NCBI GenBank assembly: GCA_964655445.1 | Contig: CAZZMZ010000001.1 | Location: 8,390-72,389 of the forward strand | Source of the DNA: an uncultured Mariniplasma sp. | GTDB taxonomy: Bacteria > Bacillota_I > Bacilli_A > Acholeplasmatales > Acholeplasmataceae | Direction of reading: 5' to 3' | Length of the DNA: 64,000 nucleotides | Shown: positions 10,482-36,509 of the stretch, piece after piece | Layout: each line of letters opens with the position of its first letter | Numbering within the stretch: position 1 is the first letter of the stretch | Notes under the pieces: model-generated | The model's database searches: none | What the model saw: only the letters and a program-made list of their open reading frames with translations | What the model was told of the DNA's origin: nothing | Made by a program: the position numbers and the translations under genes

Positions 10482-12560
10482 ATGATGTCCTTTTTTATAT
10501 CCTTATTTAGTTTTTTTAATTTGCTACAATATCAAATCATTTGGAAAGACACAGTTGTTGAAATACCGCTTCATGAAGACGTATACAATTATGTTGATCA
10601 ACCATACGCTGAACTTTATTTAAACGAAATAAAGCTTTTTGATCCAGATATGTATTATCAAATTGATGGTGTTGAAAGAACATTTCTAAAAACAGTAAAC
10701 ACTAAGTATGTTAATACCTATCATGTATATTTTAAAGTGTATTTTCCTTCTTATGGTAAAACAGGGATACAATCAATCACTTTTCAAGTTGTTGACCATA
10801 TCCCACCTGAAATTATTTATGTTCCTTCCTTTAAAATTCCGATTGGTAGTTCTATGCCTAAAGTATTAGATGGTTTGGTATACAAAGATAATTATGATGC
10901 TATAGAAAGCTTAACCTTAACTGCCGATACTTCACAAGTTATCTTAAACAAAATAGGTCTTTATACATTTTCATATCAATTAAAAGACTTATCTGGAAAT
11001 CAGACACAAGTTACCTCAACAATCGAAGTTTATGATCATCTTGAACCAACAATTGAGAAATTAAAACCTATATATCTTAATGTAGGTGAAAGCTTCAATT
11101 ATACACTCTATTACAAAATTAAAGATAATGTAGACAGTTTCCCCCTTGTTAAAGTTGATCTTTCCAAAGTGGATTTCAATCAATTAGGAACCTATGATTT
11201 TTCGATTACTGCAACAGATCAATCAGGATTATCAACCACTTTTTATGATAACTTGACCATCCATGATACCATCAAACCAACGATTATATTGACCAAACAA
11301 ACTGTAACATTAGATTATGGAGAACCCATAAATGATGAGCACTTAAGATCCTATATTGTAAGAGTGACCGATAATTATGACCAACTATCAAAAGATGATG
11401 TAAAGATTTATCATGATATCGAATCTCATGTTTTAGGCACATATAAAGTTTATTATGAAATAAGTGATCAATCTTTGAATCTTACATTAGAAACATTAAC
11501 ACTAGTCATTAAAGATATGAGTCCACCTATCATTGAAGTCATCAAAGACTTAAGGTCTCCCGTTTTTGGGGATCCACCATTATTATATGATTATTTTGAG
11601 GTAAGTGACTTGTATGATCAGGCTTCACTGATAGATGTTAAGATAACAAGTACCATTAAAATGAATATTGTAGGCAAATACTTACTCACCATTAAAGCAA
11701 CTGATCGTAGTCGAAATGAAGCGAACATGTATGTCTATTTTGAGGTTTATGATGATATAGCACCTATGATTTACCAAAAGCAAGATATCATTATCACAAC
11801 ATTCAAAAAAATACCCTTAACGCACTATTTTGAGTTAACTGATCAATACGACGATTCTTCAAAGCTTACAATAGAGATCGATGACTCAAATGTCATTTAT
11901 GATCAAGTAGGATACTATCCACTTTACGTCTATGCTAAAGATCAGTCACAAAATGAAACGAGATTAGAAACGGAAATAATCGTTGTTGATGTTGATCCAC
12001 CGATTTTAACCTTAAAACAATCTTTCATATATATATCCTTAGAAACATCTTTTTTAGATTTATCTGATTTCATCCATGAAGCATACGATCTTTATGATGA
12101 TATCGATAAAGATAACGTCCAAATCGCATCCAAGATTACATTTCATCAAGCAGGAAGGTATGAAGTCATCTATACACTAATAGATCATGCATTAAACCAT
12201 TCAGAATCCATCTTAATCGTTGTCATTGAAGATACGATTAAACCCACACTTGTTTTTGAGCATATGACTATCTATCCTGATGCTTATTTTAATGTGATGG
12301 ATTTTGTTGAAGCATTTGATAACGATGCTATAGAAGGACCTATTATGTGTAATTGTTCTCATATCGATTTTTCCATACCTGGTGAGAAAACTGTACAACT
12401 TTATGCAAGAGATGTGAGAGGAAATCTCATAGAAGAAACAATGATTATTAACGTTTTACCTTATCCAACGAAAATAAGTGCATTATCCTACCTTCCAATG
12501 CTCGTTGTCATCCTTATTGGAGGTGGTGTGATACTTCTGATTCGGAGGGGTTCAATATAA
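10482..12560 (+). CDS. Surface protein with ~8 tandem Ig-like (DUF5011/HYR-like) domains and a C-terminal TM anchor
   Basis: Recurring V-x-D-x-x-x-P-x-I linkers (VVDHIPPEI, VYDHLEPTI, IHDTIKPTI, IKDMSPPII, VYDDIAPMI, VVDVDPPIL, IEDTIKPTL), GxYxxxYxxxDxSxN strands, hydrophobic tail ending in RR. Confidence 0.8.
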   Translation: MMSFFISLFSFFNLLQYQIIWKDTVVEIPLHEDVYNYVDQPYAELYLNEIKLFDPDMYYQIDGVERTFLKTVNTKYVNTYHVYFKVYFPSYGKTGIQSITFQVVDHIPPEIIYVPSFKIPIGSSMPKVLDGLVYKDNYDAIESLTLTADTSQVILNKIGLYTFSYQLKDLSGNQTQVTSTIEVYDHLEPTIEKLKPIYLNVGESFNYTLYYKIKDNVDSFPLVKVDLSKVDFNQLGTYDFSITATDQSGLSTTFYDNLTIHDTIKPTIILTKQTVTLDYGEPINDEHLRSYIVRVTDNYDQLSKDDVKIYHDIESHVLGTYKVYYEISDQSLNLTLETLTLVIKDMSPPIIEVIKDLRSPVFGDPPLLYDYFEVSDLYDQASLIDVKITSTIKMNIVGKYLLTIKATDRSRNEANMYVYFEVYDDIAPMIYQKQDIIITTFKKIPLTHYFELTDQYDDSSKLTIEIDDSNVIYDQVGYYPLYVYAKDQSQNETRLETEIIVVDVDPPILTLKQSFIYISLETSFLDLSDFIHEAYDLYDDIDKDNVQIASKITFHQAGRYEVIYTLIDHALNHSESILIVVIEDTIKPTLVFEHMTIYPDAYFNVMDFVEAFDNDAIEGPIMCNCSHIDFSIPGEKTVQLYARDVRGNLIEETMIINVLPYPTKISALSYLPMLVVILIGGGVILLIRRGSI

Positions 12561-17582: not shown

Positions 17583-17616
17583 AAGGCGTATATCATTGTA
17601 TATAAACGCCTTTTTT
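17583..17616 (+). terminator. Intrinsic terminator
   Basis: AAGGCGT...ACGCCTT plus T run; TGTTAAAAT extended -10 follows immediately. Confidence 0.6.
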
Positions 17617-17661
17617 GTTAAAATAGTGCTAAGCAATTGAATGAGAAAGGCGGAAACAAAT

Positions 17662-20600
17662 ATGCCATCGTTATTAATGATTCAATGGGGAACCATAGGA
17701 CTCTTCATGTTCTTATATTTCCTACAAGGTTTTTTGAGAGGAACAAGCAAGTCTGTATACTATACGCTTGTCACGGTCATTACTGCAGGTGTTACTATTT
17801 GGTTGATTTCGATGGTCTCACTCAACCTTATTTTTTCAGCATCTTTTACCTTTGAATCACTCATTCAAATGATTCAAAGCATGTCTGGAAATATCATTCC
17901 ACAAAATATTGAAACTTATTTACTAGATCCACAAATCACACCGGTTGTCATTGCGTTGATCGACTTAGTGTTAAGAATCGTTTTCTACTTTGTTTTATTT
18001 CCTGTCATAAAGACATTACTCACATGGATTATCTTTGTACCTATATGGAAGTTTTTCATTAAAAAACCATTACTAGCAAGACAAAATGATATTGCTCGTG
18101 TTAAACATGAAGAAAGTAATTCAAACCGCAAATTTGTGCCTTCTAAGAGATTAAAGAAAACCGTCATCAGTCGTTTTGGTGGCGGACTTGCAGGTGCAGT
18201 ACACGGATTTGTTGTCGCTTTTTTATTCCTTTTACCAGTCATTATTTTCTCAAGCTTTTTAACAGGTTTTACAAGTATAGCGAACTTAGAACAAGAAAAT
18301 GAATATCAAACATTAGATACAGGCACACTTCCAGGTGGGCTTCCTTTTGCTTTACCTGGAAACATCGATATCGAAGATTATTTACTTCAAATCGAAGAAA
18401 TGAATGAAAAAGGACTTACAAGTATTACAAAACAAATTGTTATTAATGGACAACCATTAGATAGATATGTCTTTGACCGCATGTTAACAACAACTATCAA
18501 GCAAGAAGGTCTTGAAGATGTCAATATCAACTGGGTCCAAGAAATTGAAAATATTTTTGGTATCGCATCTGTGGTGTTAGAAGGTGGATATATTGATTCA
18601 GATTTCGATTACAATACCATTGGTGAAGATAATTTAGAAGATATTGAACAAATCTTTAATTATATAGGTCGCTCAAATGTTTTAGGCTATATGATTCCAT
18701 ATGCGACAAGATTTGGGTTAGAAAACATCCTCGTTGATCAATTAGGTGTCAATTTATACGAAAGAGATGCCAGTAGAGATGCACTCAATCAGTTTGAAGA
18801 TATCTCATGGGATGAAGAATTCTCAAACTTATATGGCGTAATTGAAGCACTCTTAAAATTTGGAACCGTCGGAGAGCTCCAAGCGTATGCATCTAATCCT
18901 GAACTTATTTTCGAGTTAACACCTGAAGAAGCAGAAAAACTCACCAATATTATACGGGCTGTCGGTGAATTAGAAACATTGGTGCTTATTAACGTTGCTG
19001 TCGATTATGCAACAACGATGGAAAGTGTTCAAAATTATGCTTCATGGATTGATGAATCTGAAAGAGAAGCTTATTTACAAGAAAGATTATCGTTTATTTT
19101 AAGTGATCCTAACTTCTTTGTAGGTGAAGCTGGCGAATTTTATCATATTGCTGATTTTGTTGAAGCACTCTTTACAGATCAGTATGGTGATGTGGATTTA
19201 GCTTATATTGTTAATAATGCTTCAAACCCCGCAACATACTTAAATGAAGATACAGGTGCTTATTTTGGACATATTATTAATCAATTAGTTGACATTAGAT
19301 TACTCATGGAATCCATACCTATTGGTATTGATTTTGGTGTATATAATACATTAGATGGTCGTTTATCTGACGAAGTACAAGATGATATAGCTGCAAGACT
19401 TGAAGAAGTTGTTTGGTCAGATGAAATCACAAATATTTCCGATATTTATGTTGAAGCAACCAAATTAGGGCTACAAGCTTTATTTGGTGAAAATCCAAAT
19501 TATTATGCTTTTGTTGATGATTTAGCAGTCAATAATATAGATGCTTTAAGATCGATTGTTTCACTGATCTTTGAAGAATCAGAGGTTGTCAATATTGGTT
19601 TAGAGATTGCAGTACCTATTGTTTTAGACTCAGTGATTACAGATCCTAATTTAAGAACACTTGTTGATGAAGCGATTAAATTTGACAGTACAACAGGTGA
19701 GGTTAACTTTAATTTCGGTCAAGAAATCAACAATGTCATTACGATTTTAGAGACTGTTTATAAATTCTCAACTGCTTCTGAGCTTGCATCGTTTTCGACA
19801 ATGACCACAGAAGCTAGACTTCAAGTTTTCGCTAATTTTGGTGCATTATCAGAAACAGATTATGACACTTTTAAAGATGCACTTGAAGATTTACAAGTTT
19901 TAAGCAGAGTTGGCAGAGAAGCATTGATTTATGCAAGAGATTCTTTAGGCATTACTCAAGTTTATGTACCTAATGAAGTTGCATTAGGAGAAGAGCTAAC
20001 TGCAATTACTGGACTTTTATATTACGCTGCTCAATATACACATGATCAATTGGTTGGAGCAGGATTATTAGAAGATATTGATTATGCACCACTCTTTAAT
20101 GATCCAGTTTTTAGATCTCATTTACTAACGACTGAACTTGATAATCATTCATCACTTTTATTACAAACCATTGCACATAACATCAAGGTATTTAGTGAAG
20201 ATCCAGCGCTATCACAATATTTATCGATACCAGATAGTTTAGCAGCGGCTTCACCTGAAGATCTTCTTTGGGAAGAAGAATTAAATAACTTGCTTGGGTT
20301 TGTATTTGATTTTGCAGGTTCTTTTGAAGGTGCTAGTGATTTTACATTCTCACTTAGAGATGTATTAACAGTAGCGAATAATCCAACTGGTATTAACATG
20401 TCTTTAATTACAAGATTTAGTGATTTAGCTGTTTCTGAACATGCCTTTGGATCTCTCGATGAATCCATCATCTTAAGATCAAGCATAAAGCGTGCAATGG
20501 ATACATATGGTGCGACCTTGTCTGCTAGCTTAGGTGGCTATGAGGTGAAAACACCAAGTGTGACAGTTGAAAATGATGCTTTGAAAGAAGAAACTTTTGT

Positions 20601-23600
20601 TGAATTCATTCACGGTGTTACGACACTTATTAAAGGTATGAATGAAACACTAGGATTTGAAACATTAGCTGAAGCTATTGAAAATCAAACAACAGCAAAA
20701 CTCATTCATGCATACCAACAAACATCAGATCAAGATATCGAAGTTTTTGGACAAAGTGAACTTATTAGCGGTTTAATAGGTGATGCACTCATTAGTGAAG
20801 ATTTCCAAGCATTCTTATTATCCACTGTGAATAATGCACAAACCATATTGGTCGTACCAAGTGATTTCTTTAGTGTTGATCCAGTTTTAATGGATGGTGA
20901 TTTCTTTAAGACAGATGAGGTAATCAATATACTTATAGCCGTTAAGGCAGTAGAACTAAGCGATGGTGAAAACATGTCTACCATTGGATTAGGTACATTT
21001 ACAGGCTTAGATGGCAGAAATATTGACCCTGAAACAAATGATGATGATTTTGATCGTCTCATTGGCGCTCATTATATTTATATACTTTTAGATCGTGCAC
21101 TCAAATTGCCATCTATAAGTGATTTTGTAGGCACAACCTTAGGTGATGCTTTAGGTGTTGCAGTAACCGATTTAGATTTAACACCACATTCAGCAATGCT
21201 ATCAACAGATCCAAATGAGCCTGTTGAATTAGGACGTGTACCTAAAGATGAATTTAGACGTATATTCCATTCTATCAGCTTATTAGGGGACCCAAGTGCA
21301 CTTGGTCTAGGTACGTTTACAAATCTTATTGATCCTTATGAGGATGAAGATGGATTTAGTGATTTCATCGCTTCTGATTACATTTATATTGTATTAGCGA
21401 GACTTTTCGAAAATGAAGGTTTCGGTGACTATGTCGGTGGCTTGCTTGCTGGTGTTTTTGGTGACGATCAGGAAGCACCAGATATGACACCACCAAGTGA
21501 CGCAAAAGGCCAAGTTGTTGGCGCACTTGATGAAGATGTTATTACGAGAGTTGAATTAAGAAACATCATGGTATCCTTTAAATTAATCGGTGCTGATGAT
21601 CCATCAGCGATTGGTATTGGATCAGTGATGAGCTTAATTGACCAAAACTATGATGCTTTAGAAGATAAAGACGATATGGATCGTTTCTTAGATTCACTAT
21701 ATATTCAAGACAAATTATCGTTCTTATTATTATCTGATTCAGTGATTGAATTAATCGCAAACGGCATGTTCATTCCGGCAGACTTTGATATTCCACAAAA
21801 GGCATTAATCACAGTAGATGGTAAAGACCGTATCATTCAACAAGAACTTTACAATATATTTGCAGGACTCAAGACTTTAGGTATTGTTGATGAAGATTCC
21901 TTATCTACGATTGGACCAGATACACTCTTTGGCTTAACAGAAGCTGAAGTTGATCTTGTGGTTACATCTGATTATCTTTATACAGTCATTGATTTATTCC
22001 TTAAGGGTCAAGATACATTTGAGATTCCACTTTCTGCTTTAAATCCAAATACAGATCCTGATTATCCAGATAAAGTGAAGAAATCTGAGATTACAGATAT
22101 TTTCAAAACACTTAATATTTTACAGGTTGAAAATCTTGATACATTTGAGCCACAACTCGTAACAATCGCACAAATCAATGAAGTTTTAGCTGAAACAGAT
22201 TCTGCTATAGTCTTAAGTCTTTTATCACAAGGCATTATTGATGCGATAGGAGCAGATAAGATTCCATCAGAAGCTTATCAAGCAGAAAATCTATTAACTA
22301 AAGAAGAAATTGAAGCACTTGTTGCTGCATTAGAAATTATCGCTGGTAGCGATGATGTTGCCATCGGTGATGTTGATGTTGAATCTATCACAGTAGGTCA
22401 AGTTCAACAAATTGATTTAACACCTACAGGATCATATATCATCAAGCAACTTATATCAGATGAAATCTTAAACTTAATTGATGTGAACAATTTACCTGAA
22501 GATGCTTATGCACCACTTTCAAATGGCGGAAGCTCCTTTGTACTACTTGGTGCGACCTTAGATGCACCAGTAGACCCACTGAGACGCTTATCAGATGATG
22601 AATTACAAGAAATTGTCGCAGCACTATATATTTTAGCTGATGATCCAAACAATACAGACCCAGAATTTGATCCGGCAAATGTTATAGTAACTGAAATATC
22701 AACTGAAGCCACTGTTGGACAAGCACAACAATTGAAGACAAATAATTCACTGGTGATTCGTTCTCTTATTACAGATGCTGTGATTGATAATTTAGGTGCG
22801 ACTGTAGTCATTCATGATGACGCATATGATGTAACTTATCCAACCTTATTATCGACAGCTGAAATCAATGCGCTTTTAGATGCAATGTATATTCTAGCAG
22901 GTGAAGATGATACTGTTTTAATTTCAGCAATTTCAACAGATGTTACCGTAGGTCAAACACAAAACCTTAAAGGTAATGCTTCATTGATTATGAGACAGTT
23001 ATTCACTGATCAAATCAAAGATGCCATCGATCCTCTAGATGAAGGTAAAATACCAGCTGAAGCGTATGATTTAGACAGACCAACCATGTTTACGCAACAA
23101 GAGTTAGACGCGATGCTTGATGCACTCTATATCTTAGCAAACAATAATCCACCATTTGGTTATCCAGGTCATGATCCATTATTTGATGTCAATGCTGTAC
23201 TTGTAGCAAACGTTTCAACAGACGTATCTGTTGGACAAGTAAGCGAACTTAAAGGTACAGAATCATATACCATTAAACAACTTGTTTCTGATAACGTGAT
23301 TGATGTGATTGGTGTAGATAACATCCCTATGGATTCATACATTGACAGCAATCCAGCGAACAGATTAACAGATGCTGAGATTGATGCTATGATTGATGCA
23401 TTAGTTATTTTGGCAGAACCTGAAGATCCATATGCCGTTTTAGTTACAGCTATTTCAACAGATGTAACCGTAGGTCAAGTGAAGGATCTTAACTTAATCA
23501 ATTCACTCATTACAAAACAATTAATCAGTGACTCAATCATTGATTCAATTGGTGTAGATAATATCCCTATTGAAGCATATATTGATAGTGATCCATTAAA

Positions 23601-25950
23601 TAGACTTTCAGATGATGAATTAGATGCAATGATATTAGCACTTGATGTTTTAGCTAATAATGATGATTCAGTCTTAGTATCTGCGATTTCTACAGATGTG
23701 ACCGTAGGTCAAGCATTAGATATGAAACAAACAGAATCATATATTATTCAACAATTATTGTCAGATGCTATTATTGATGCCATCGATCCACTTGATGAAG
23801 GCAAGATTCCTTTAGAAGCTTATATTGATCAAGATTCAAATAATAGACTATTACAAACAGAAATAGATCATATGATTGATGCGCTTTATGTCCTTTCTAA
23901 CGAAGATGAAGATGTTTTAGTATCAGATATTACAACTGATTTAACTATTGGACAGCTTAAGGGACTTAATTCAATTCCATCGATTATAATGAAGAAACAA
24001 ATGTCTGATCAAATTATTGATGCAGTTGGCGTTGATAAAGTACCACTTGATGCTTATATTGATCAAGATAATACGAAGAATTTAACAGATACTGAGTTAA
24101 CTGAAATGATCGAAGCGTTAGAGATATTAGCAGGATCTGTTGTGCCTGGTGATGTAGATCACGTTTTAGTTTCAGCAGTATCAACAGATGTCACTGTAGG
24201 TCAAACAAAACAACTTGATCAAGATAATGAATCACTTATTATCAAGCAAATCATTAGTGATGCCATTATTGATATGATTGGTGTTGATGGTATACCATTA
24301 GATGCTTATATCGATAATGATTCAAATAACAGATTAACAGATACAGAAATTGGTAATATGGTTGATGCATTAGACATCTTAGCGAACAATAATGATGCAC
24401 TTCTTGTAACAGATATTTCTACTGATATTACAATAGGTCAACTTAAAGACTTAAATGCATTACCATCACTCATTACACAAAAATTAATTTCTGATACCAT
24501 TATTGAAGCTGTAGGAGTAGATAATGTTCCTATGGATGCTTATATTGATGAAGATGATGAGAAGAATTTAACATCAACTGAAGTTTCTGAAATGATTCTT
24601 GCATTAGAAATACTTGCAGGCTCAACAGTGCCAGGTGATGTGGATCATATCTTAGTTACAGATGTTGTGATTGATGTAACAGTTGGTCAAACTCAAAGTC
24701 TTAAGACAAATAACTCTGTGATCATTAAGCAAATCTTATCTGATAATATCGTAACGATGTTAACAACTTCAGGTATTGAAATTCCAGTAGCAGCTTATAG
24801 AAATAATGATGATGAAGATAGATTAACCAATGATGAAATCGGATATATGATTGATGCACTCTTCGTCTTATCAGGTGAAGATAATAATGCGAAAGTTGAT
24901 GAAATCGTCTTTGATGAAACAGCACTTTCTGTAGAAACGTTACAATCATTTGATGAAAATTCACTTGTCTTAAACAGAGTCATTTCTACAGGTTTAATTA
25001 CCAACTTACCAAATATTCCTGATGAATCATATGTTGTTGTTATTGATCCTCTAGATCCAGATTATAAGAAGGATATCTTAAGAATTGAAATCAATAATAT
25101 ATTAGATGCATTAGATATTTTAGGCATTACAGATACATCAAGTGCGGGTAGTATTGGAGCTAATTCGATTACGTTTGCAGATATTTACCTAGTGCTTGAA
25201 TTAGGTACTGTAGGCGAACCAAATGAACATTACTTAGGATTCTCACCAATTGTTGCACACATTATGTCAACACCTATGGTTGAATCAGTCAGTGATGTAA
25301 GAGGCGGTTATGATTATGGTATTCCATCTACTGCATATAGAAATGATTATGATTTAACGTATGATGAAATCGTTAAACTTGTAGAGGCTTTAGCATACTT
25401 AGGTGATGTTGGTGATGCACCACGCACATATGCTCCTGCTGATAGAACTTTACTCCAAGCATCAAGTGGTATTGATCCAACAGGATTTGGACCAGATGAG
25501 CTAGATGCTTTACTCGATATTGAATCACTTATCGTTTATCGTATGATTTCAATTGGTATTAATGATGCAGGATTAGAAAATGAAGATGCAAGAGCAGAAG
25601 TAGGAGATACGAACTATGATGCAGAAGTTATTGCATTGCCAACACCACTCATCTACGATATTAAGATTGCAGAAATGGAACACCTAGTTGTTTCAATGAA
25701 TTTATTAGGATTAGATGACTTAACTGACTTAACAAGCATAGATGCATCTACAATTCTTGGATTATCTGATGCAGATATGGATACATTACTGGATAATGAA
25801 ATTACCATTATGTACTATCTAATCAATGATATCATTGAAGATCAACCATTATTAGTTGCTCAACTTGATCCTTCTGATTTTGAAGATTTTGCACCATATA
25901 GAATTAAGAGAGTTTCACTCATAACATTATTAAAAGACAATAATATTTAA
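17662..25950 (+). CDS. Giant acidic membrane-anchored repeat protein with CvpA-like N-terminal TM domain
   Basis: Uninterrupted ORF; likely ATG 17662 after AAAGGCGG; QGFLRG and SRFGGGLAGAVHG resemble CvpA motifs; ~11 copies of an ~80 aa repeat in the C-terminal third. Confidence 0.8.
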   Translation: MPSLLMIQWGTIGLFMFLYFLQGFLRGTSKSVYYTLVTVITAGVTIWLISMVSLNLIFSASFTFESLIQMIQSMSGNIIPQNIETYLLDPQITPVVIALIDLVLRIVFYFVLFPVIKTLLTWIIFVPIWKFFIKKPLLARQNDIARVKHEESNSNRKFVPSKRLKKTVISRFGGGLAGAVHGFVVAFLFLLPVIIFSSFLTGFTSIANLEQENEYQTLDTGTLPGGLPFALPGNIDIEDYLLQIEEMNEKGLTSITKQIVINGQPLDRYVFDRMLTTTIKQEGLEDVNINWVQEIENIFGIASVVLEGGYIDSDFDYNTIGEDNLEDIEQIFNYIGRSNVLGYMIPYATRFGLENILVDQLGVNLYERDASRDALNQFEDISWDEEFSNLYGVIEALLKFGTVGELQAYASNPELIFELTPEEAEKLTNIIRAVGELETLVLINVAVDYATTMESVQNYASWIDESEREAYLQERLSFILSDPNFFVGEAGEFYHIADFVEALFTDQYGDVDLAYIVNNASNPATYLNEDTGAYFGHIINQLVDIRLLMESIPIGIDFGVYNTLDGRLSDEVQDDIAARLEEVVWSDEITNISDIYVEATKLGLQALFGENPNYYAFVDDLAVNNIDALRSIVSLIFEESEVVNIGLEIAVPIVLDSVITDPNLRTLVDEAIKFDSTTGEVNFNFGQEINNVITILETVYKFSTASELASFSTMTTEARLQVFANFGALSETDYDTFKDALEDLQVLSRVGREALIYARDSLGITQVYVPNEVALGEELTAITGLLYYAAQYTHDQLVGAGLLEDIDYAPLFNDPVFRSHLLTTELDNHSSLLLQTIAHNIKVFSEDPALSQYLSIPDSLAAASPEDLLWEEELNNLLGFVFDFAGSFEGASDFTFSLRDVLTVANNPTGINMSLITRFSDLAVSEHAFGSLDESIILRSSIKRAMDTYGATLSASLGGYEVKTPSVTVENDALKEETFVEFIHGVTTLIKGMNETLGFETLAEAIENQTTAKLIHAYQQTSDQDIEVFGQSELISGLIGDALISEDFQAFLLSTVNNAQTILVVPSDFFSVDPVLMDGDFFKTDEVINILIAVKAVELSDGENMSTIGLGTFTGLDGRNIDPETNDDDFDRLIGAHYIYILLDRALKLPSISDFVGTTLGDALGVAVTDLDLTPHSAMLSTDPNEPVELGRVPKDEFRRIFHSISLLGDPSALGLGTFTNLIDPYEDEDGFSDFIASDYIYIVLARLFENEGFGDYVGGLLAGVFGDDQEAPDMTPPSDAKGQVVGALDEDVITRVELRNIMVSFKLIGADDPSAIGIGSVMSLIDQNYDALEDKDDMDRFLDSLYIQDKLSFLLLSDSVIELIANGMFIPADFDIPQKALITVDGKDRIIQQELYNIFAGLKTLGIVDEDSLSTIGPDTLFGLTEAEVDLVVTSDYLYTVIDLFLKGQDTFEIPLSALNPNTDPDYPDKVKKSEITDIFKTLNILQVENLDTFEPQLVTIAQINEVLAETDSAIVLSLLSQGIIDAIGADKIPSEAYQAENLLTKEEIEALVAALEIIAGSDDVAIGDVDVESITVGQVQQIDLTPTGSYIIKQLISDEILNLIDVNNLPEDAYAPLSNGGSSFVLLGATLDAPVDPLRRLSDDELQEIVAALYILADDPNNTDPEFDPANVIVTEISTEATVGQAQQLKTNNSLVIRSLITDAVIDNLGATVVIHDDAYDVTYPTLLSTAEINALLDAMYILAGEDDTVLISAISTDVTVGQTQNLKGNASLIMRQLFTDQIKDAIDPLDEGKIPAEAYDLDRPTMFTQQELDAMLDALYILANNNPPFGYPGHDPLFDVNAVLVANVSTDVSVGQVSELKGTESYTIKQLVSDNVIDVIGVDNIPMDSYIDSNPANRLTDAEIDAMIDALVILAEPEDPYAVLVTAISTDVTVGQVKDLNLINSLITKQLISDSIIDSIGVDNIPIEAYIDSDPLNRLSDDELDAMILALDVLANNDDSVLVSAISTDVTVGQALDMKQTESYIIQQLLSDAIIDAIDPLDEGKIPLEAYIDQDSNNRLLQTEIDHMIDALYVLSNEDEDVLVSDITTDLTIGQLKGLNSIPSIIMKKQMSDQIIDAVGVDKVPLDAYIDQDNTKNLTDTELTEMIEALEILAGSVVPGDVDHVLVSAVSTDVTVGQTKQLDQDNESLIIKQIISDAIIDMIGVDGIPLDAYIDNDSNNRLTDTEIGNMVDALDILANNNDALLVTDISTDITIGQLKDLNALPSLITQKLISDTIIEAVGVDNVPMDAYIDEDDEKNLTSTEVSEMILALEILAGSTVPGDVDHILVTDVVIDVTVGQTQSLKTNNSVIIKQILSDNIVTMLTTSGIEIPVAAYRNNDDEDRLTNDEIGYMIDALFVLSGEDNNAKVDEIVFDETALSVETLQSFDENSLVLNRVISTGLITNLPNIPDESYVVVIDPLDPDYKKDILRIEINNILDALDILGITDTSSAGSIGANSITFADIYLVLELGTVGEPNEHYLGFSPIVAHIMSTPMVESVSDVRGGYDYGIPSTAYRNDYDLTYDEIVKLVEALAYLGDVGDAPRTYAPADRTLLQASSGIDPTGFGPDELDALLDIESLIVYRMISIGINDAGLENEDARAEVGDTNYDAEVIALPTPLIYDIKIAEMEHLVVSMNLLGLDDLTDLTSIDASTILGLSDADMDTLLDNEITIMYYLINDIIEDQPLLVAQLDPSDFEDFAPYRIKRVSLITLLKDNNI
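22140..24960 (+). repeat. Intragenic tandem repeat array, ~234-320 bp units
   Basis: T(V/I)GQ-type anchors near 22160, 22390, 22711, 22945, 23227, 23467, 23701, 23944, 24193, 24430, 24678. Confidence 0.85.
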
Positions 25951-25956
25951 TAGATT

Positions 25957-25991
25957 AAAGGGCATCTAGCGATAAGCTAAATGCCTTTTTC
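25957..25991. terminator. Probable bidirectional terminator between convergent genes
   Basis: AAAGGGCATCTAGC-gataa-GCTAAATGCCTTTT imperfect stem with flanking A/T runs. Confidence 0.7.
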
Positions 25992-26019
25992 TTATAAAAA
26001 AACACCTCAACATGAGGTG

Positions 26020-27450
26020 TTACAATTGTTCAAATAAATTGATATAAAAATTTACGCCAGCAACAATATTATCAATCGTAATATCTTCATTCACACCATG
26101 AATTTTTCTTAAATCATCTTTAGATACATCCATAGGAGAGAACTTAAACACTCTTTCTGATATTGCATGATAATGTCTAGAATCTGTGGTTGCTACCATG
26201 AGATAAGGTGAGACGATGACTTCTGGCCAAGTTTGATTGATAGCTTTTGTTAATGACTTATATCCATCATCTATGACTGAAATAGTAGAAGCCTCATGTG
26301 CCTCTAAAACCTCAACTTCAATGGGATACTTTCTAATAATATGTTTGATTTTTTTGACAATCATTTCACTGGATTCTCCTGGCATTAACCTGTAGTTAAT
26401 ACCAATTGATGCCTCTGACGGTAACACATTCATCGCTTCACTTCCCAAGCTCATTGTAAATGCCTGAGTTGTTTTAAACATTGCCAGAAACTCGCCACCT
26501 GATATCTTCGCGATCAGTTTTACAATAGGTAAAAATAGCCAAAGATTAGCAAAAATCATTTTGATGAAAAAAGATTTTGAATGTGGTGCAAGAGATTCAA
26601 ATAAGTATTTTACAGGTGTCGTTAATTTAAGCTTAAAAGCCTTTGACTGATTTAATTTAGTGACTGCCATAGACAAAGATGTGATAGGCGTAGTTTTAGG
26701 TGGTGTGGATGCATGCCCTCCCTTTGTTTTAGCAACAAGCTTAATATTCATAAATCCCTTTTCTGCAATGCCGACAACTGCAGCTTTTTCAGATACACCA
26801 GGGAACTGATCTTTTACAATTGCCCCACCTTCATCTAAAACCATGAAAGGTTTAATACCATGACTTTTAAAATACTCAACGATAGCTTCTGCTGATTTAC
26901 CATAAACTTCTTCATCACCACCAAATGCCAAATACACATCATGTTTAAATACTTTACCTTTCGATAAGAGATACTCCATTGCATTCATGATCGCATTCAA
27001 ACTGCTTTTTGTATCCAAAGTACCTCTGCCATAAACAGTTTGATCATTTATTCTACCGCTAAAAGGTTCTTCATCCCATACACCATTAGTTGGTACAACA
27101 TCATAATGCGACATGAAAACATAAGGATCTTCTGCGATTTCGCCTTTGATATGAAAGAGCATTGCTCGTTCGTGTTCACTATACGTTGATTTTTCAAATA
27201 CATGAGGAAATCTTTCTTTGATGAAAAGTCTAAAATCAGTAAATGCTTTTGGGTTTTCTAAAGCAGGATCCGGATATGATATCGTTTCAAATTGAATCAT
27301 TTTTGAAAGAGACTCGATTGCAAATTTTTGATCAAACTCATGGTTCTTTTTCATTTCAGGAAATGCTTTTGGTTCGAAATGAAAGGTTCTTAAGAGAATG
27401 ACAAAGAGTAATACAATGAATAATGATATACCTAAATAAACGTAAATCAC
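26020..27450 (-). CDS. M20 family metallopeptidase/amidohydrolase with N-terminal membrane anchor (carboxypeptidase S/PM20D1-like)
   Basis: MSHYDVVP, GRGTLDTK, DEEV, LDEGG, GGHASTPP, TDSRHY, IHGVNE. Confidence 0.9.
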   Translation of the reverse strand: MIYVYLGISLFIVLLFVILLRTFHFEPKAFPEMKKNHEFDQKFAIESLSKMIQFETISYPDPALENPKAFTDFRLFIKERFPHVFEKSTYSEHERAMLFHIKGEIAEDPYVFMSHYDVVPTNGVWDEEPFSGRINDQTVYGRGTLDTKSSLNAIMNAMEYLLSKGKVFKHDVYLAFGGDEEVYGKSAEAIVEYFKSHGIKPFMVLDEGGAIVKDQFPGVSEKAAVVGIAEKGFMNIKLVAKTKGGHASTPPKTTPITSLSMAVTKLNQSKAFKLKLTTPVKYLFESLAPHSKSFFIKMIFANLWLFLPIVKLIAKISGGEFLAMFKTTQAFTMSLGSEAMNVLPSEASIGINYRLMPGESSEMIVKKIKHIIRKYPIEVEVLEAHEASTISVIDDGYKSLTKAINQTWPEVIVSPYLMVATTDSRHYHAISERVFKFSPMDVSKDDLRKIHGVNEDITIDNIVAGVNFYINLFEQL

Positions 27451-28106
27451 TTAATAACCCCCTTTTTATAGAGAATTCTTGAACTTATCAAAGTTATGAC
27501 AACCCCTACAGGAACCATGAGTCCAACAAGACCACCACTCCCAGGAACAAATAGGAAGAAGAAAATCATAAACAATAAAGGGATAATTGCAATTTTCCAA
27601 CGTTTTGAAATATAAACAAAACCTAACGCGCCAAATAATGCAGGCACGACATTGTCAAATGCAGGCTTTAAGCTCGCTGTTTCTAATAAAGGTGTTAGAG
27701 GAATTAAAAGAAGTGCACCAATCATAATGACTATGGTTGTTACGATGCTTGATGTTGCTACGGCGATGGTTGCAATCACATCACCTTTTTCAGAACCCTT
27801 TTCAAGATTAAGAGCATCTTGAGCATTGAGGGCAACAGGTACTTTAATGCTTGCTAAATTACCAGTAACAAACGCCAAATAGGATGAACCAGTACCTAAC
27901 ATAGGTGTAAATGTAAATACTTCTATCGTTGTTATTGGCCAGAAGACAACAGCAGTTGCGATGAATCCTGGTAAAAATTCTCTAAAAGTAGGCAATACAC
28001 CAGTTGCAATGCTCATACTAATAGGTGCAGTGATAAATAAAATAAGCGCACCTAGCATCCAATAACGACCTGACTTATGAATACTATCTTGATAAGCTTT
28101 ATCCAT
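27447..28106 (-). CDS. Multi-pass membrane protein
   Basis: ~6-7 hydrophobic segments; start revised to MDKAY (28106); overlaps the M20 start. Confidence 0.8.
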   Translation of the reverse strand: MDKAYQDSIHKSGRYWMLGALILFITAPISMSIATGVLPTFREFLPGFIATAVVFWPITTIEVFTFTPMLGTGSSYLAFVTGNLASIKVPVALNAQDALNLEKGSEKGDVIATIAVATSSIVTTIVIMIGALLLIPLTPLLETASLKPAFDNVVPALFGALGFVYISKRWKIAIIPLLFMIFFFLFVPGSGGLVGLMVPVGVVITLISSRILYKKGVIK

Positions 28107-28107
28107 A

Positions 28108-28836
28108 TTAACGTACCCCCATGCCAGCATAAATGACCGCAAAGATCATCGCAAGTATCATCGATAGTGGTAAGGCATAATTTCTTAACCACTCCCATTT
28201 AAATTTTTTAAGCATTAAACCAAAGATAACAACCCATAATGCAGATGTTAAAAAGACTAAAATAGCTAGTAAAGAAATAAATGTTTCATCACCTACGGTT
28301 TTAGGTGCTAAAACAAAGCCAACAAATGCGGAAATCATACCGATAAATAAAGCGTCCATCATAATATGATTCCACGACTGATCCTTATCTTTGACTGATT
28401 CAATTTTTTGACTATATTTCTTATAGAAGAATGGAATTATAAGAAGTGGTGGAATACATCCAAAGGTCATCACCCATAATGCGGTTGTTACAACTCTAGG
28501 ATTTAAGATGTCACCAGCCTCAAAGCCGAATTCTCTTAAAACGAGTGTTGCAGTAGGTAATTCATAAGTTAATGCACCTAAAGTTCCTAGTCTCATACCT
28601 GCAATCATAGGTCCGAATATTTTAGCAAGCGTAATAAGACCAATGAGTATTGCAAGAGATGGAGCTATCGTGAAAATAGTAGAAGACAAAATGGTTTGAT
28701 TGATATCCTTTTTTGAAAATCCTAATGTGAAAGCTCTTTTTCTTGCTTTAAGCAAAAAAACGGTCGACTGTATCAAGACATAGGAAAAAATCATACCTAC
28801 GACTAGATAAACCCACCATGCATTTAAATATGCCAT
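28108..28836 (-). CDS. Multi-pass membrane protein, DUF5058-like
   Basis: SSTIFTIAPSLAILIGLITL...MRLGTLGALTYE pattern recalled as DUF5058; GAGGT SD before MAYLN. Confidence 0.65.
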   Translation of the reverse strand: MAYLNAWWVYLVVGMIFSYVLIQSTVFLLKARKRAFTLGFSKKDINQTILSSTIFTIAPSLAILIGLITLAKIFGPMIAGMRLGTLGALTYELPTATLVLREFGFEAGDILNPRVVTTALWVMTFGCIPPLLIIPFFYKKYSQKIESVKDKDQSWNHIMMDALFIGMISAFVGFVLAPKTVGDETFISLLAILVFLTSALWVVIFGLMLKKFKWEWLRNYALPLSMILAMIFAVIYAGMGVR

Positions 28837-28969
28837 TTGTGTATACCTCGATTTCATGCGTTGTTTATTTTATTATAAACGATAAAAAATAAAATCAATG
28901 ATTTTTTTTGAATAATATGTTTCCAAACATATATACATATGATAAAGTGAGATTGAAGGAAGTGATACG

Positions 28970-29841: not shown

Positions 29842-31086
29842 TTACTTTTTGACTACTCTGATTTTGTTTAATTTTGCAAATCTAGGAAGTCCATCAATAA
29901 GCTTAGCTTTTGAGTCACCTTGAATCAGCGGTAATGCGTAATCTACAAAGTCTTGAGTCAAGCCTTTTCCATGAGGTAAGATCCACTCTAGTGGTACTTT
30001 TTGTTCTGTATTAGCAGCCTTTAATAATGGAATTAATACATACTTAATCTTATAAGGATTTGAAGAAATTCTCTTGAATCCAACCATCTTATCTGACGTA
30101 CCTCTTACAGCTGCTTGAACTGCTTTTTTACCAGCATTGAATGCTTCTTCAACGTCAACCTTTGACGCTAAATGCGCTGCAGATCTTTGGAGTAATGAAA
30201 ACTCAATGGCACGTACTTTAACATTGGTACGCTTAGAAACTTCTTCAGCTAATACTTGTGCTGTACCACCTAATTGAGCATGACCAAACGCATCTTTCTT
30301 TAAATCTTGGAATAGTTCAGGAATGTATTTTCCTTCATTAGTTTTGATACCTTCAGATACTGCAACAATGACTTTGCCTTTTTCTGCTAATACTTCAGAA
30401 ACTTGCTTAAAGAAATCATCAATATCAAATGCAATTTCTGGTAAATAAATTAAATCTGGACCTTGTCCTTTATAAGAAGCTAATGCAGCAGCTGCAGTGA
30501 GCCATCCAGCATTTCTACCCATTACTTCAACGATGGTTACTTGAGGTGTATCATAGACAGTCGCATCATGATATAACTCCATAAATGTTGTAGCAACATA
30601 TTTTGCAGCACTACCATAGCCTGGTGAGTGATCAGTGACATTTAAGTCATTATCAATCGTCTTTGGAACACCCATGACGTTGCAATCATAACCAGACTTC
30701 TTAAAGAATTTAGAAATCTTGTTACATGTATCCATTGAATCATTACCACCATTGTAGAAGAAGTAACGAATATTATATTTTTTAAATACTTCTAACAATC
30801 TTTCATATTGGCTTGGATCTTTTTTAGGATCCTTTAATTTGAATCTAACAGAACCGATTGCTGATGAAGGTGTATTCTTTAATAAGAATAACTCTTCTAA
30901 GCTTTCTTGCTTAATGTCATAAAACTCTTCGTTTAAGACACCTTTAATGCCATGTACAGCACCATAGACTTCTGTAATATTTTCTTGTTTTAATGCTTCA
31001 ATAAAAACGCCAGCAGCGCTTGAATTAATTACACTCGTTGGGCCACCTGATTGGCCGAGTAGTGCAGCACCTTTTAAATCTTTCAT
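29842..31086 (-). CDS. pfp: Pyrophosphate-dependent 6-phosphofructokinase
   Basis: GQSGGPTSVIN, GGNDS (Asp) and PKTIDND (Lys), the established PPi-specificity residues; MGRNAGW; DAFGHAQLGG. Confidence 0.88.
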   Translation of the reverse strand: MKDLKGAALLGQSGGPTSVINSSAAGVFIEALKQENITEVYGAVHGIKGVLNEEFYDIKQESLEELFLLKNTPSSAIGSVRFKLKDPKKDPSQYERLLEVFKKYNIRYFFYNGGNDSMDTCNKISKFFKKSGYDCNVMGVPKTIDNDLNVTDHSPGYGSAAKYVATTFMELYHDATVYDTPQVTIVEVMGRNAGWLTAAAALASYKGQGPDLIYLPEIAFDIDDFFKQVSEVLAEKGKVIVAVSEGIKTNEGKYIPELFQDLKKDAFGHAQLGGTAQVLAEEVSKRTNVKVRAIEFSLLQRSAAHLASKVDVEEAFNAGKKAVQAAVRGTSDKMVGFKRISSNPYKIKYVLIPLLKAANTEQKVPLEWILPHGKGLTQDFVDYALPLIQGDSKAKLIDGLPRFAKLNKIRVVKK

Positions 31087-31165
31087 AGTATCACCATTTC
31101 TCTAATATTTTTTATTTCATAGCACATTTTACCATAAAGCGATTTGATTGGCCACAAAATGTGTC

Positions 31166-31179
31166 TTAAAACGATTTCA
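31166..31179. promoter_or_regulatory. cre-like (CcpA/LacI-family) site between divergent pfp and pfkA
   Basis: Reverse complement TGAAATCGTTTTAA, one mismatch to TGWNANCGNTNWCA. Confidence 0.4.
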
Positions 31180-31277
31180 TAATTTACCAAAATGATAAAT
31201 CATAAGATTTAAATTAGCATGTAAGTGTGTTATAATATGTGTGCAGTACGTTTTTTTATGTAAGGGGATCATATAAT

Positions 31278-32228
31278 ATGAAAATTGGCGTTTTAACATC
31301 GGGTGGTGATGCGCCTGGCATGAATGCTGCAATTCGTGCAGTTGTCAGAGCTGGAGAAGCACACGGACATGAAGTATATGGCATCAAAGATGGTTATGCT
31401 GGCTTAATCAATGATGATATGGTTTTACTCAATCACCAATCTGTTTCAGGAATCTTAAGTCAAGGTGGTACGTTTCTTGGCACTTCAAGAGCTCCTGAAT
31501 TTTTAAAGGAAGAAGTAAGACTTAAAGCAGTAGAAAATCTAAAAAATCGCGGCATTGAAGCTGTTGTAGCTATTGGCGGTGACGGTACATATCGTGGTGC
31601 AATGGATTTATCTAAATTAGGCATTAAAACGATTGGTTTACCTGGCACAATTGATAATGATATCGCAGGTACCGATTTTACTATCGGATTTCATACAGCA
31701 GTTGAAACGATTGTTGATGCGATTGATAAGCTTAGAGATACATCCACATCACATAGAAGATGTTCTATCGTTGAGGTGATGGGTAGACATTGTGGCGATT
31801 TAGCTTTATTTGCAGGTATTTGTGGTGGTGCTGAATTCATCATTACACCAGAAAACCCAATTAATAAGGATAAAATCATCTCAAGACTAAAAAAACATGT
31901 GACCGAAGGTAGAAGACACGCAATTATCGTTGTGACTGAAAACCAAATGGATGTACACGAATTTGCTAAAGAAGTCACTGAAAAATCGGGATTTGCATCA
32001 AGAGCTACTGTGCTCGGATATATTCAAAGAGGTGGACAGCCTTGTCCAGAAGATCGTATCTTAGCCTCTCGCATGGGTAATTATGCAGTAGAATTACTTA
32101 ATGATGACATTTATGGTGTATGTGTAGGCGTTAGAGATAACCGTATGATTCATGTACCATTTGTGAATGTTGTTGGTCAGTCAAGACCTAAAAACGAATT
32201 ATATAACTTGGTTAAAAAAGTTTCATAG
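31278..32228 (+). CDS. pfkA: ATP-dependent 6-phosphofructokinase
   Basis: LTSGGDAPGMNAA, GGDGT (Gly), PGTIDND, MGRHCG, LGYIQRGG; extended -10 TGTTATAAT at 31228-31236. Confidence 0.96.
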   Translation: MKIGVLTSGGDAPGMNAAIRAVVRAGEAHGHEVYGIKDGYAGLINDDMVLLNHQSVSGILSQGGTFLGTSRAPEFLKEEVRLKAVENLKNRGIEAVVAIGGDGTYRGAMDLSKLGIKTIGLPGTIDNDIAGTDFTIGFHTAVETIVDAIDKLRDTSTSHRRCSIVEVMGRHCGDLALFAGICGGAEFIITPENPINKDKIISRLKKHVTEGRRHAIIVVTENQMDVHEFAKEVTEKSGFASRATVLGYIQRGGQPCPEDRILASRMGNYAVELLNDDIYGVCVGVRDNRMIHVPFVNVVGQSRPKNELYNLVKKVS

Positions 32229-32268
32229 AAACTGTTTATTAATAAAAAAATTCATATAAAGAAAGGAA

Positions 32269-34902: not shown

Positions 34903-34910
34903 AAGTTTCT

Positions 34911-34943
34911 AAAGAAGGCATTTGAAAAATGTCTTCTTTTTTT
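34911..34943 (+). terminator. Intrinsic terminator after ppdK
   Basis: AAAGAAGGCATTT-gaa-AAATGTCTTCTTT plus T run. Confidence 0.75.
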
Positions 34944-35078
34944 ATGTTTTATGGTAATATAAAATAAAGTTCAATCATTGGGTGGGAACATGATTAAATC
35001 ACATTTTTATGCTTGTTTTTTAAAACTAATATGTTTAAATCCTATCATGTCTCTTAATCAATATCCTGGGGAGGGCAT

Positions 35079-36353
35079 ATGAGAAGAAAACCTATTTATA
35101 TCTTAGGCGCTGTAATTATCTTGATTTCTAGTATGATTTATGGGTGTGTTCATTTTATGAGAGGAGAAAGAGAAAAACTTCTTGAAGAGCCAGCTATTGT
35201 AGGTGTGTCAACTGGATACTTGTTGTCATGGAAAAGTGTTGAACATGCAGATATCTATTATGTATATGTTGATGATGAACTTGTATCAGAACAAACCGAA
35301 AACACCTACATTTTAGAAGACATCAATCCTTTAGAGGGTTACTTACTAAAGGTTGAAGCTGTTGATTTAGATAACGATTATGAATCTAATGAATCATTGA
35401 TGTTTTTTTCTCCGTTTGCTCAAACAACCTTAAATGATTTAGTGTCAGTAGATGATGACATCTTTTATTTGGGGTATGAACAAACTCATTATGCAAACCT
35501 ATATGGATTAGCTAAATTTAGATTTGAATCTATGGTTAGTACGGGTTACATCGTGAATATTAATGTAGATGACATAGTCTATGAGGAGCCAATCATCGTA
35601 AAATCGAATAATGAAAATAGACTGATACCATTTAATCCTTTAAAACAAGGCTACACGATGCCTTTAGATGCTTTTAGCACATCTATCTTTTATTTATTTA
35701 CGTTTGAGCCAGGACAAAAAATTGATATAAAGATTGAGTATTTGGATTTACTGGATCTTTCTATGAATCATGAAATCATTGTTGGACCCAATCAAACACT
35801 TCAATTTCCAATTATTGAGCCATCTGATCAATATCTTTTAGGCATTGAAAATGCATCAGATGATATCAAAACTACACTATTTCATACGATTTATAGACAA
35901 GAAGACATTGAGTCAATAGATCATCTTATCTTTAAATCAGCAGTCAAAACAAAGATGCAAATGATTAAAATTGAGAATAAATCAGATATCACTCAAACAT
36001 TACTTATCACACCCTTTATGTATGAAGATGTAACAGATCAAGAATCAATCAATATCAATGAAAGCCAAGATGAAAAATTCATTCTATTGACTGGTTTTGA
36101 ACCATTTGGTTTTATTTTTAATTTGGATTTTCAAAAACTTAAAACTGATTTTGATGTTGATATTTACATCGTTAATAGATTGAATGGTCTTATTAGAATA
36201 GATCAAGAGATAGAAAACATAGAGCATCATCTTTATCGATTGAGATTACCACTAGAAACATATCAAGATGTTGCTATATTGATTGTAATTAAAAATCAAA
36301 TAGTTCTTGATGACTCTATGGAGCCATCTCAATTTAGAGGTTACATCGCTTAA
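35079..36353 (+). CDS. Membrane-anchored/secreted hypothetical protein with FN3-like N-terminal domain
   Basis: MRRK plus hydrophobic helix; LSWKSVEHADIYYVYVD...LKVEAV resembles FN3. Confidence 0.65.
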   Translation: MRRKPIYILGAVIILISSMIYGCVHFMRGEREKLLEEPAIVGVSTGYLLSWKSVEHADIYYVYVDDELVSEQTENTYILEDINPLEGYLLKVEAVDLDNDYESNESLMFFSPFAQTTLNDLVSVDDDIFYLGYEQTHYANLYGLAKFRFESMVSTGYIVNINVDDIVYEEPIIVKSNNENRLIPFNPLKQGYTMPLDAFSTSIFYLFTFEPGQKIDIKIEYLDLLDLSMNHEIIVGPNQTLQFPIIEPSDQYLLGIENASDDIKTTLFHTIYRQEDIESIDHLIFKSAVKTKMQMIKIENKSDITQTLLITPFMYEDVTDQESININESQDEKFILLTGFEPFGFIFNLDFQKLKTDFDVDIYIVNRLNGLIRIDQEIENIEHHLYRLRLPLETYQDVAILIVIKNQIVLDDSMEPSQFRGYIA

Positions 36354-36361
36354 ACATATAT

Positions 36362-36393
36362 GCCACAAAACGTAAAGGTTTTGTGGTTTTTTT
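36362..36393 (+). terminator. Intrinsic terminator
   Basis: GCCACAAAAC...GTTTTGTGGT plus T run. Confidence 0.75.
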
Positions 36394-36414
36394 GAAAATA
36401 AATACAAACTTATT

Positions 36415-36428
36415 TGATAACGTTTTCA
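36415..36428. promoter_or_regulatory. cre site (CcpA/LacI-family operator) upstream of pyk promoter
   Basis: TGATAACGTTTTCA is a full match to TGWNANCGNTNWCA; extended -10 TGATAAAAT at 36460-36468. Confidence 0.6.
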
Positions 36429-36509
36429 TTTGCTGACATATTACATTGACTTTTATCTATGATAAAATATACAAGGGAAATTAAGGCATCACGCTAGGAG
36501 TTATATTAA

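Follow-up and report, generated by a model that had tools for sequence, protein, structure and literature searches.

The giant gene and its product

We analyzed a 64,000-nucleotide stretch of DNA from an uncultured Mariniplasma sp. (contig CAZZMZ010000001.1 of assembly GCA_964655445.1), hereafter called the window, with a focus on one giant gene on its + strand. This gene is the longest open reading frame (ORF) in its genome and has no paralogue there, and its closest named homologues come from Acholeplasmataceae, including Peloplasma aerotolerans. The features of the gene and of the protein are as follows:

17596..17624, + strand: predicted promoter, with TTGTAT at 17596-17601, a 17-bp spacer and an extended -10 element TG-n-TAAAAT at 17616-17624
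17645..17653, + strand: ribosome-binding site GAAAGGCGG, 8 nt before ATG 17662, in conserved upstream regions
17662..25950, + strand: ORF of 2,762 amino acids (aa), ~303 kDa, 17% Asp+Glu, no Cys
17662..18261, + strand: residues 1-200, divergent CvpA-like domain with four predicted transmembrane (TM) segments, GxxRGxxK at 23-30, RxxGxxxGxxxG at 171-182 and a K/R-rich predicted cytoplasmic loop at 134-171
18262..18441, + strand: residues 201-260, linker of variable length, with a predicted local distance difference test score (pLDDT) below 50 at 203-233
18442..21789, + strand: residues 261-1376, proximal solenoid, built of helical units of ~100 aa (about 11, degenerate) in which Glu (E294, E588, E688, E873) and Ser (S338, S830, S935) recur
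21790..25947, + strand: residues 1377-2762, distal solenoid of 16 three-helix repeats of ~80 aa, the final one truncated, with no separate tip domain or C-terminal anchor
24061..24582, + strand: three EF-hand-like acidic loops (residues 2134, 2218 and 2296), at the equivalent place in alternate repeats
25961..25993, + strand: predicted intrinsic terminator, a hairpin at 25961-25985 followed by a T-run
26001-26021: second hairpin, serving the convergent M20 peptidase gene

The frame is open on the + strand from 17641 to 25950 as a single ORF under translation table 11, which was kept because reading with code 4 gained nothing and merely extended the frame upstream through one TGA. ATG 17662 was taken as the start because it is preceded by GAAAGGCGG and because the ATG and the core of the ribosome-binding site were unchanged in all 13 aligned upstream regions. 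The extended -10 element was likewise invariant (13/13), with TTGTAT 17 bp upstream of it in the window. A plain consensus promoter scan performed at chance level (55 sites found vs 53.9 expected) and did not list the promoter of the giant gene; thus, the promoter call rests on upstream conservation. The 83-nt intergenic stretch holding both hairpins, that of the giant gene and that of its M20 neighbor, had a folding z-score of -7.4. These results agree with the first-pass annotation of this DNA, which had given the gene a promoter and a terminator of its own, and both N-terminal motifs it had named, GFLRG at residue 23 and SRFGGGLAGAVHG at residue 170, are present. The protein contains 10.3% Asp, 6.7% Glu, 29.5% Ile+Leu+Val and 4.8% Lys+Arg. 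It has no Cys, as had been claimed, but this does not hold for the family, in which 52 of 106 homologues have Cys.

Relationship of the N-terminus to CvpA

The N-terminal region has hydrophobic segments at residues 3-21, 31-54, 95-133 and 182-200, and the structural model places helices at 4-26, 28-51, 93-151 and 168-198. It had previously been proposed that this region is homologous to CvpA. A search against Pfam Colicin_V (PF02674) gave no match at E<=1 with the Mariniplasma protein, either in full or as residues 1-246, and the count for its own genome was 0 of 1. Among the N-termini of the family, Colicin_V matches were found in 7 of 17 at E<=0.1 and in 13 of 69 at E<=0.001, and one protein (L097) exceeded the cut-off of the model (34.7 bits vs 29.3). 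When the profile of the giant N-termini was aligned by hhalign with 12 Colicin_V-positive proteins of the same order, the score reached 96.9% (E 1.5e-10; 94.7% in a scripted run), in contrast with 0.3-3% for three unrelated membrane-protein profiles used as controls. Moreover, a profile made from giants only pulled out ordinary CvpAs of ~240 aa, with E-values down to 9e-19. Atlas clusters with 20-24% Colicin_V members matched at 0.89, which we regard as a lead only. The proposed homology is therefore supported by the matches in 13 of 69 relatives and by the profile-profile scores (95-97% vs at most 3% for the controls), even though the Mariniplasma sequence itself is not recognized by the Pfam model.

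The glycines of the two motifs are highly conserved in 106 homologues (G23, 99%; G27, 98%; G174, 100%; G178, 96%; G182, 88%), and so is R171 (85%). We take the near-invariant aspartate of CvpA to belong to the motif DRxxG, that is, to the position before Arg171. In the Mariniplasma protein this position (170) is a Ser, and the commonest residues among the 106 homologues are Ser (32), Gly (18), Arg (16), Lys (12) and Asn (11), so that, if the motif is placed correctly, the aspartate appears to be lost in the giant family. Because homology is detectable and the glycines are conserved but the aspartate is replaced, the N-terminus of the giant is a CvpA-derived domain and a non-canonical member of that family. 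According to a study in enterohemorrhagic Escherichia coli (EHEC), CvpA has a near-invariant Asp and three Gly, crosses the membrane four times, requires its periplasmic C-terminus for function, and is linked to the sigma-E response and ion homeostasis, with the outer C-terminus being proposed as a stimulus sensor (Warr et al., 10.1101/2020.09.25.314492). A role in deoxycholate resistance has also been ascribed to CvpA.

Analysis of loop charges in the 106 homologues revealed a strong bias: loops 25-32 and 134-172 were net positive in 100% and 95% of the proteins, respectively, vs 1% for loop 55-92 and likewise 1% for the segment following TM4. On average, the cytoplasmic loop contains 10 K/R. 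Based on this bias, the N-terminus is predicted to lie outside, loops 25-32 and 134-172 inside, and the C-terminal ~2,560 aa outside; the tail is presumably translocated by Sec after TM4. A quick tree grouped 19 of 21 stand-alone CvpAs on a single branch (SH-aLRT 98) that excluded the 69 giants, and the mid-length CvpA forms were uncertainly placed. Numerous genomes carry both a giant and an ordinary CvpA of ~240 aa. Thus, the idea that CvpA was reused as the anchor of the giant holds as regards homology, but the anchor belongs to a second CvpA lineage beside the ordinary one and is not the cell's usual CvpA.

The repeat tail

The tail appears to comprise about 27 repeats, 16 distal ones and about 11 proximal ones counted by eye from the sequence. 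Mean pairwise identity among 11 core distal units was 43% (24-66%), and recognizable repeats extend to residue ~2740. An iterated profile of the 80-aa repeat identified 1,184 units in 90 of 106 fetched family members. The near-invariant polar positions of this unit are a Glu (98%) and a Ser (94%), both at helix starts, together with a Pro; hydrophobic core positions are also kept, about 22 of 76 columns being strongly hydrophobic. No catalytic residue set was found in the tail across these units, in line with the earlier claim that catalytic motifs are absent: only Glu, Ser and Pro are near-invariant when polar positions and Pro are considered. The degenerate proximal units begin at ~288, and profile self-alignment gave 92-97% at offsets of about 200-400 residues, which, with the recurring Glu and Ser, is consistent with units of ~100 aa. 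Proximal and distal repeat profiles matched each other at 22% at best, leaving a common origin unproven. The 80-aa unit was undetected in 16 of the 106 proteins, including the longest of family f21; several giants of up to 6,000+ aa (L103, L114-L118, L128) have a CvpA-like start and no recognizable 80-aa unit, and may carry a different or more diverged repeat.

AlphaFold2 models cover residues 1-1050 and 1888-2288, the latter containing five repeats. The five-repeat model was confident (pLDDT 94.1, predicted template modeling score (pTM) 0.87) and showed three main helices per unit, and the model of residues 1-1050 (pLDDT 85.1, pTM 0.59) was almost wholly helical. The tail is thus predicted to form one all-helical stacked solenoid. 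These models and the charge bias in the 106 homologues bear out, at the level of prediction, the first-pass view of a very long helical solenoid pointing outward. No distal tip domain was observed, the C-termini of nine homologues shown ending in a repeat or a truncated repeat. LPxTG was found in none of the 106 homologues, no cleavable signal was evident, and a TM-like stretch beyond residue 300 was found in only 2 of them. Asp+Glu account for 14-29% of residues across all 106 homologues (family median 17%); the highest value was observed in the tail of one homologue (L121:4535-11086), possibly as a salt adaptation. Aromatic residues (FWY) are more frequent in the proximal than in the distal part (11% vs 4.5%), and 34-37% of proximal columns are conserved hydrophobic.

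No Pfam or NCBIfam repeat model matched the repeats. Scattered matches of full-length proteins to Haem_bd, RHH_9, WapI, Gasdermin_C and EF-hand models in these databases were composition-driven and were rejected. A sequence-profile search of the PDB returned nothing below E 0.18, and Foldseek gave no match at E<=0.001 against the PDB (both models) or BFVD (repeat model), the best E-values being 0.31 for the repeat and 0.022 for the N-terminal part, with TM-scores of at most 0.21 in the PDB. VIA-align against 48,161 chains produced non-significant best Z values of 4.6 (repeat) and 5.6 (N-terminal part; a 1,050-aa model is overlong for searching by domain). We regarded two saposin-like entries and five entries for peptidoglycan enzymes (Z 3.0-3.4, model residues ~124-205) as noise, and neither EF-hand proteins nor P116 appeared among the VIA-align matches listed, which excludes neither. 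The ESM Atlas yielded no usable match with the repeat. The repeats are real and, as had been suggested, matched no named family; by the guidance given with the tools, these null results do not prove a new fold, and a weak match does not exclude kinship with known solenoids.

We also examined EF-hand-like loops, using a 12-residue PROSITE-like pattern that we assume to represent the EF-hand loop. It matched three times in the Mariniplasma protein (shuffle mean 0.05; none of 500 shuffles reached 3). Family-wide, 16 loops were found vs 3.6 expected, confined to 6 of 106 proteins, and the acidic positions of the loop are occupied by Asp in only 16-29% of cases. The loop ends in the 98%-conserved Glu, and the repeat model has beta-bridge pairing at the loop positions. 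One homologue matched Pfam EF-hand_6 (E 4.8e-6, summed from weak stretches), and one is named 'EF-hand domain-containing protein' in UniRef. The loops thus appear to be a local feature rather than a family-wide one, and of the cation-binding layer suggested before, only this local element stands.

Distribution of the giants and of wall genes

The first 600 aa of the giant matched 40 of 61 relatives, including 31 of 36 in the genus. Within the order, the N-terminal profile matched 129 of 186 genomes, mostly in single copy and mostly in frames of 1,000-4,460 aa. No match to this profile was found in g25 (0/20), g26 (0/12) or g29 (0/3), whose listed genomes measure 0.6-1.1 Mb and which we infer to be phytoplasma-like. 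Class-wide, 136 of 350 genomes were matched. A broader profile, applied to same-class genomes only, matched 119 of 399 and added the giants of f12 as well as short TGA-coded CvpA forms, which are 397-548 aa long in seven fetched f16/f24 loci. A search of all proteins matched 1,602 clusters (E<=0.001); of the 150 that were listed, about 110 were at least 1,000 aa long (hand count); a word-indexed search with the A6 profile found 4 proteins only. Family length ranges from 875 to 6,049 aa, with the longest frames (4,000-6,500 aa) in a mraY-positive family. Named holders include Haloplasma contractile, Izemoplasmatales, Xianfuyuplasma and Liberiplasma, and homologues are mostly annotated as 'hypothetical'.

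Occurrence of the peptidoglycan gene mraY was scored on the same draw of class genomes as the giant. Giants were present in mraY-negative families (f1, 22/27; f4, 7/7; f19, 12/20; f22, 20/20) and in mraY-positive ones (f9, 8/10, with mraY in 10/10; f21, 21/22, with mraY in 21/22; f29, 2/2). They were not found in mraY-positive f8 (0/36) and f11 (0/44) or in mraY-negative f24 (0/19), and f16 gave one weak match (1/21). Penicillin-binding proteins (PBPs) and FtsW were detected in all five giant-holding genomes tested, and the Mariniplasma genome (98% complete) had no match to mraY or a transpeptidase. Wall genes alone do not prove the presence of a wall, and Haloplasma contractile is reportedly without a visible one. 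The giant had been framed as a feature of wall-less cells, and specificity for such cells was rejected, given its co-occurrence with mraY, PBPs and FtsW and the fact that long forms were not found in wall-less, mycoplasma-type f16/f24.

Evolution, loss and gene neighborhood

The ratio of nonsynonymous to synonymous substitution rates (dN/dS) was 0.06-0.19 in every segment of the giant in four close pairs, three of which gave 0.05-0.08 for DnaE. In a fifth pair, with greater saturation, the giant showed 0.12-0.32. Thus, the giant is under purifying selection along its whole length, and antigenic variation was rejected on these values. At the DNA level, we found no long tandem array. The 12 congeners fetched have between 14 and 27 units each. 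Length changes by whole repeats, and congeners differ by hundreds of residues.

In two congeners, G017 (99% complete) and G023 (93%), the flanking CDF and M20 genes share a contig, and the giant is missing from the interval. G032 is split at the site, and G002 and G033 also lack the flanking matches. This clean loss in G017 and G023 shows that the gene is dispensable, and an essential role was rejected. In G023, a radical-SAM-like gene with a CxxxCxxC motif occupies the usual site of the giant (L213:2183-3073). Possibly broken copies were seen in two near-complete genomes (G105:C1:982835-983611 and G228:C1:399182-399958), one with a TAG inside the N-terminal match and the other in a 331-aa frame.

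No neighbor is conserved across the class. The order DnaE-CDF-giant-M20 is kept near the genus only, so that the attempt to assign a function by gene neighborhood failed. Tandem paralogues, a long one of 2,200-4,000 aa with a short one of 875-1,420 aa, occur in f21 and f22 (L104, L105, L106, L107, L117, L118, L130) and could possibly form hetero-oligomers; in f22, a 5'-nucleotidase-type protein and a trypsin-like lipoprotein are encoded nearby. In four small-genome loci of the order (L015, L085, L091, L092), gerA-/gerAC-like spore-germination genes adjoin the giant. Codon bias, a weak proxy of expression, placed the gene at the 87th percentile of 1,208 genes. As to direct signs of expression, no RNA data set was listed as a holder of the giant, and the low-depth contigs of the one holder contributed nothing further.

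Other genes in the window

The window also encodes a 1,587-aa acidic probable lipoprotein with seven Flg_new repeats, an aBig_2 domain and RCC1-like repeats (44995-49755, + strand), and a surface protein of 692 aa that combines bacterial Ig-like domains in tandem with a hydrophobic anchor at its C-terminus (10482-12560, + strand). Next to the giant lies a conserved three-gene unit (26020-28857, - strand) of a DUF5058 membrane protein, a 231-aa membrane protein without a Pfam match and the M20 peptidase; it is kept together in 14-15 loci and may possibly represent a two-part transporter with a peptidase. At positions 29842-37865, two divergent phosphofructokinase genes precede one for pyruvate phosphate dikinase and one that probably encodes pyruvate kinase; for all but the first gene, these names are putative.

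Discussion

Our preferred reading, to which we assign a probability of roughly 0.42, is that the giant may be a CvpA-derived, membrane-anchored acidic rod whose likely role is that of a structural polyanionic brush by which the cell surface is supported and shielded. We favor a structural rod at the outer membrane face because the tail is an acidic solenoid with neither a catalytic set nor a tip, is free to vary in length and yet evolves under purifying selection. Four helices would seat the CvpA-derived domain in the membrane and hold some 27 acidic helical repeats outside as a stiff rod. By general solenoid geometry this rod would be tens of nm long, its length being set by the repeat number. 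Its acidic surface might bind cations and keep out large or anionic agents, and the CvpA module might retain a role in membrane homeostasis. The giant likely has a single origin that predates wall loss in the class, and most wall-less lineages that live freely would have retained it as an accessory part of the envelope that is not essential.

Several observations weigh against this reading. The model of residues 1-1050 reaches a pTM of only 0.59, and the rod shape and length are themselves predicted. The strict conservation of the CvpA glycines and Arg171 suggests more than passive anchoring. The giant co-occurs with peptidoglycan genes, where a membrane-supporting brush would be less needed, and long forms were not found in several wall-less groups (f16/f24 and the 0.6-0.9 Mb genera); moreover, two congeners have cleanly lost the gene. 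In codon bias it ranks lower than EF-Tu and the major lipoproteins, which speaks against a dense full coat, and acidity is common to other surface proteins of the genome (net acidity rank 4 of 515). The role in surface support is one that we infer from sequence.

The conserved glycines (88-100%) and the basic cytoplasmic loop would fit an envelope sensor, in which the solenoid serves as an antenna or tether, originally across peptidoglycan, and reports mechanical or ionic stress to the CvpA domain, which then gates ion flux or signals via that loop. CvpA has been tied to sigma-E and ion homeostasis, with its outer C-terminus proposed as a stimulus sensor (10.1101/2020.09.25.314492), and both the co-occurrence with wall genes and the location of the longest frames in a mraY-positive family would fit a tether across the wall. 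However, no signaling partner is conserved near the gene, the conserved CvpA aspartate is lost, a variable low-confidence linker (203-233) separates anchor and rod, and the giant persists and grows where wall genes are gone; we therefore consider a sensor rather unlikely. A conduit for lipids or hydrophobic nutrients seems improbable; here a hydrophobic groove of the solenoid would collect fatty acids or lipids outside the cell and deliver them to the CvpA domain, to be inserted into the membrane. The aromatic and hydrophobic character of the proximal part would suit it, and so would the uptake of exogenous fatty acids by acholeplasmas and weak saposin-like matches at residues 521-605 (Z 5.1, root-mean-square deviation (rmsd) 5.2, 77 aligned; Z 4.7, rmsd 5.6, 78 aligned). 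Yet these Z values lie within the stated noise range of the tool for helical models, the strongly hydrophobic columns of the distal repeat, set against ordinary solenoids, suffice for the core only, the models show nothing of the beta-sheet groove that known lipid bridges have, and no lipid genes are conserved near the giant; the ligand conduit raised in the first-pass annotation thus gained nothing beyond sub-threshold fold matches.

The EF-hand-like loops raise the prospect of a calcium-stiffened adhesin or biofilm fiber, in which loops binding Ca2+ would make the rod rigid, so that along its length it could attach to minerals or to other cells. The excess of loops over expectation, the EF-hand_6 match, the UniRef name and the conserved terminal Glu point this way. 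Their confinement to 6 of 106 proteins with a low share of Asp, the lack of a distal adhesin domain and purifying selection over the whole length point the other way, and such a fiber appears about as improbable as the conduit. Sideways packing of rods into a regular S-layer-like lattice, a protein wall in place of peptidoglycan, is very improbable: the protein is acidic, Cys-poor, helical and conserved over its whole length, and tandem long-plus-short paralogues exist in two families, but it is an integral-membrane fusion with a polytopic N-terminal anchor rather than a secreted protein, its codon bias reaches merely the 87th percentile, its length differs by hundreds of residues among congeners, two of which have lost it, and genomes with wall genes carry it as well. 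All other roles taken together seem least likely of all. A bolder and rather doubtful extension is that the giant could be an ancestral envelope machine of the mollicute-founding lineage, a CvpA module coupled to a new-fold solenoid of tens of nm. This solenoid would once have spanned the peptidoglycan, either as an active conduit or as a tether for mechanosensing; free-living wall-less descendants would have turned it into a protein exoskeleton, and host-dependent ones would have shortened or lost it. If true, it would offer a mechanism for CvpA and a missing step in bacterial survival of wall loss.

A literature search, with most subscription papers beyond its reach, found no account of this family. 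Both CvpA and surface proteins with long repeat regions are already known; their fusion at such a scale, with such a repeat and range, was not found in print. The giant is among the largest proteins of these bacteria, is conserved over many families, and contains a confidently modeled repeat with no significant match among solved folds. For CvpA, a protein with an important outer C-terminus and a mechanism under question for >30 years, it provides a natural handle, and it is a testable candidate for surface organization in free-living wall-less bacteria. Cultured holders (Haloplasma contractile, Xianfuyuplasma and Peloplasma) are available for such work, and congeners without the gene also exist.

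Comparison with known systems

CvpA (PF02674) is the closest known system, sharing the homologous four-TM domain, the GxxRG and GxxxG glycine motifs and the predicted outside location of the C-terminus, whereas the Mariniplasma protein has no PF02674 match, appears to have replaced the Asp before Arg171 and carries an added tail of ~2,560 aa. Mid-length CvpA proteins (355-548 aa) likewise combine a CvpA domain with an outer tail, and one of them (L230, 398 aa) matched the giant profile over positions 8-457, including the first units. MBOVPG45_0669 of Mycoplasma bovis, a protein of this kind, is listed as non-essential (PMC4045577). The tails of mid-length proteins are, however, 5-15 times shorter, and the TGA-coded forms are not acidic; their tails gave no match to an extension-only profile (best E 0.039).

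As regards the tail, alpha-solenoids (armadillo, HEAT and TPR), as generally known, also stack two- or three-helix repeats into an elongated body, whereas the units of the giant measure 80-100 aa and have no significant sequence or fold match. Gram-positive fibrillar proteins such as Ebh, SasG and Flg_new arrays share a very long membrane-tethered repeat stalk with variable repeat number; in contrast, the giant is predicted to be all-alpha, with an N-terminal polytopic anchor and neither LPxTG nor a distal ligand-binding domain. Finally, Mycoplasma pneumoniae P116 and the bridge-like lipid-transfer proteins resemble the giant as large membrane-anchored surface proteins that could feed the membrane, but their cavity is built of beta-sheet, whereas the models of the giant are all-helical.

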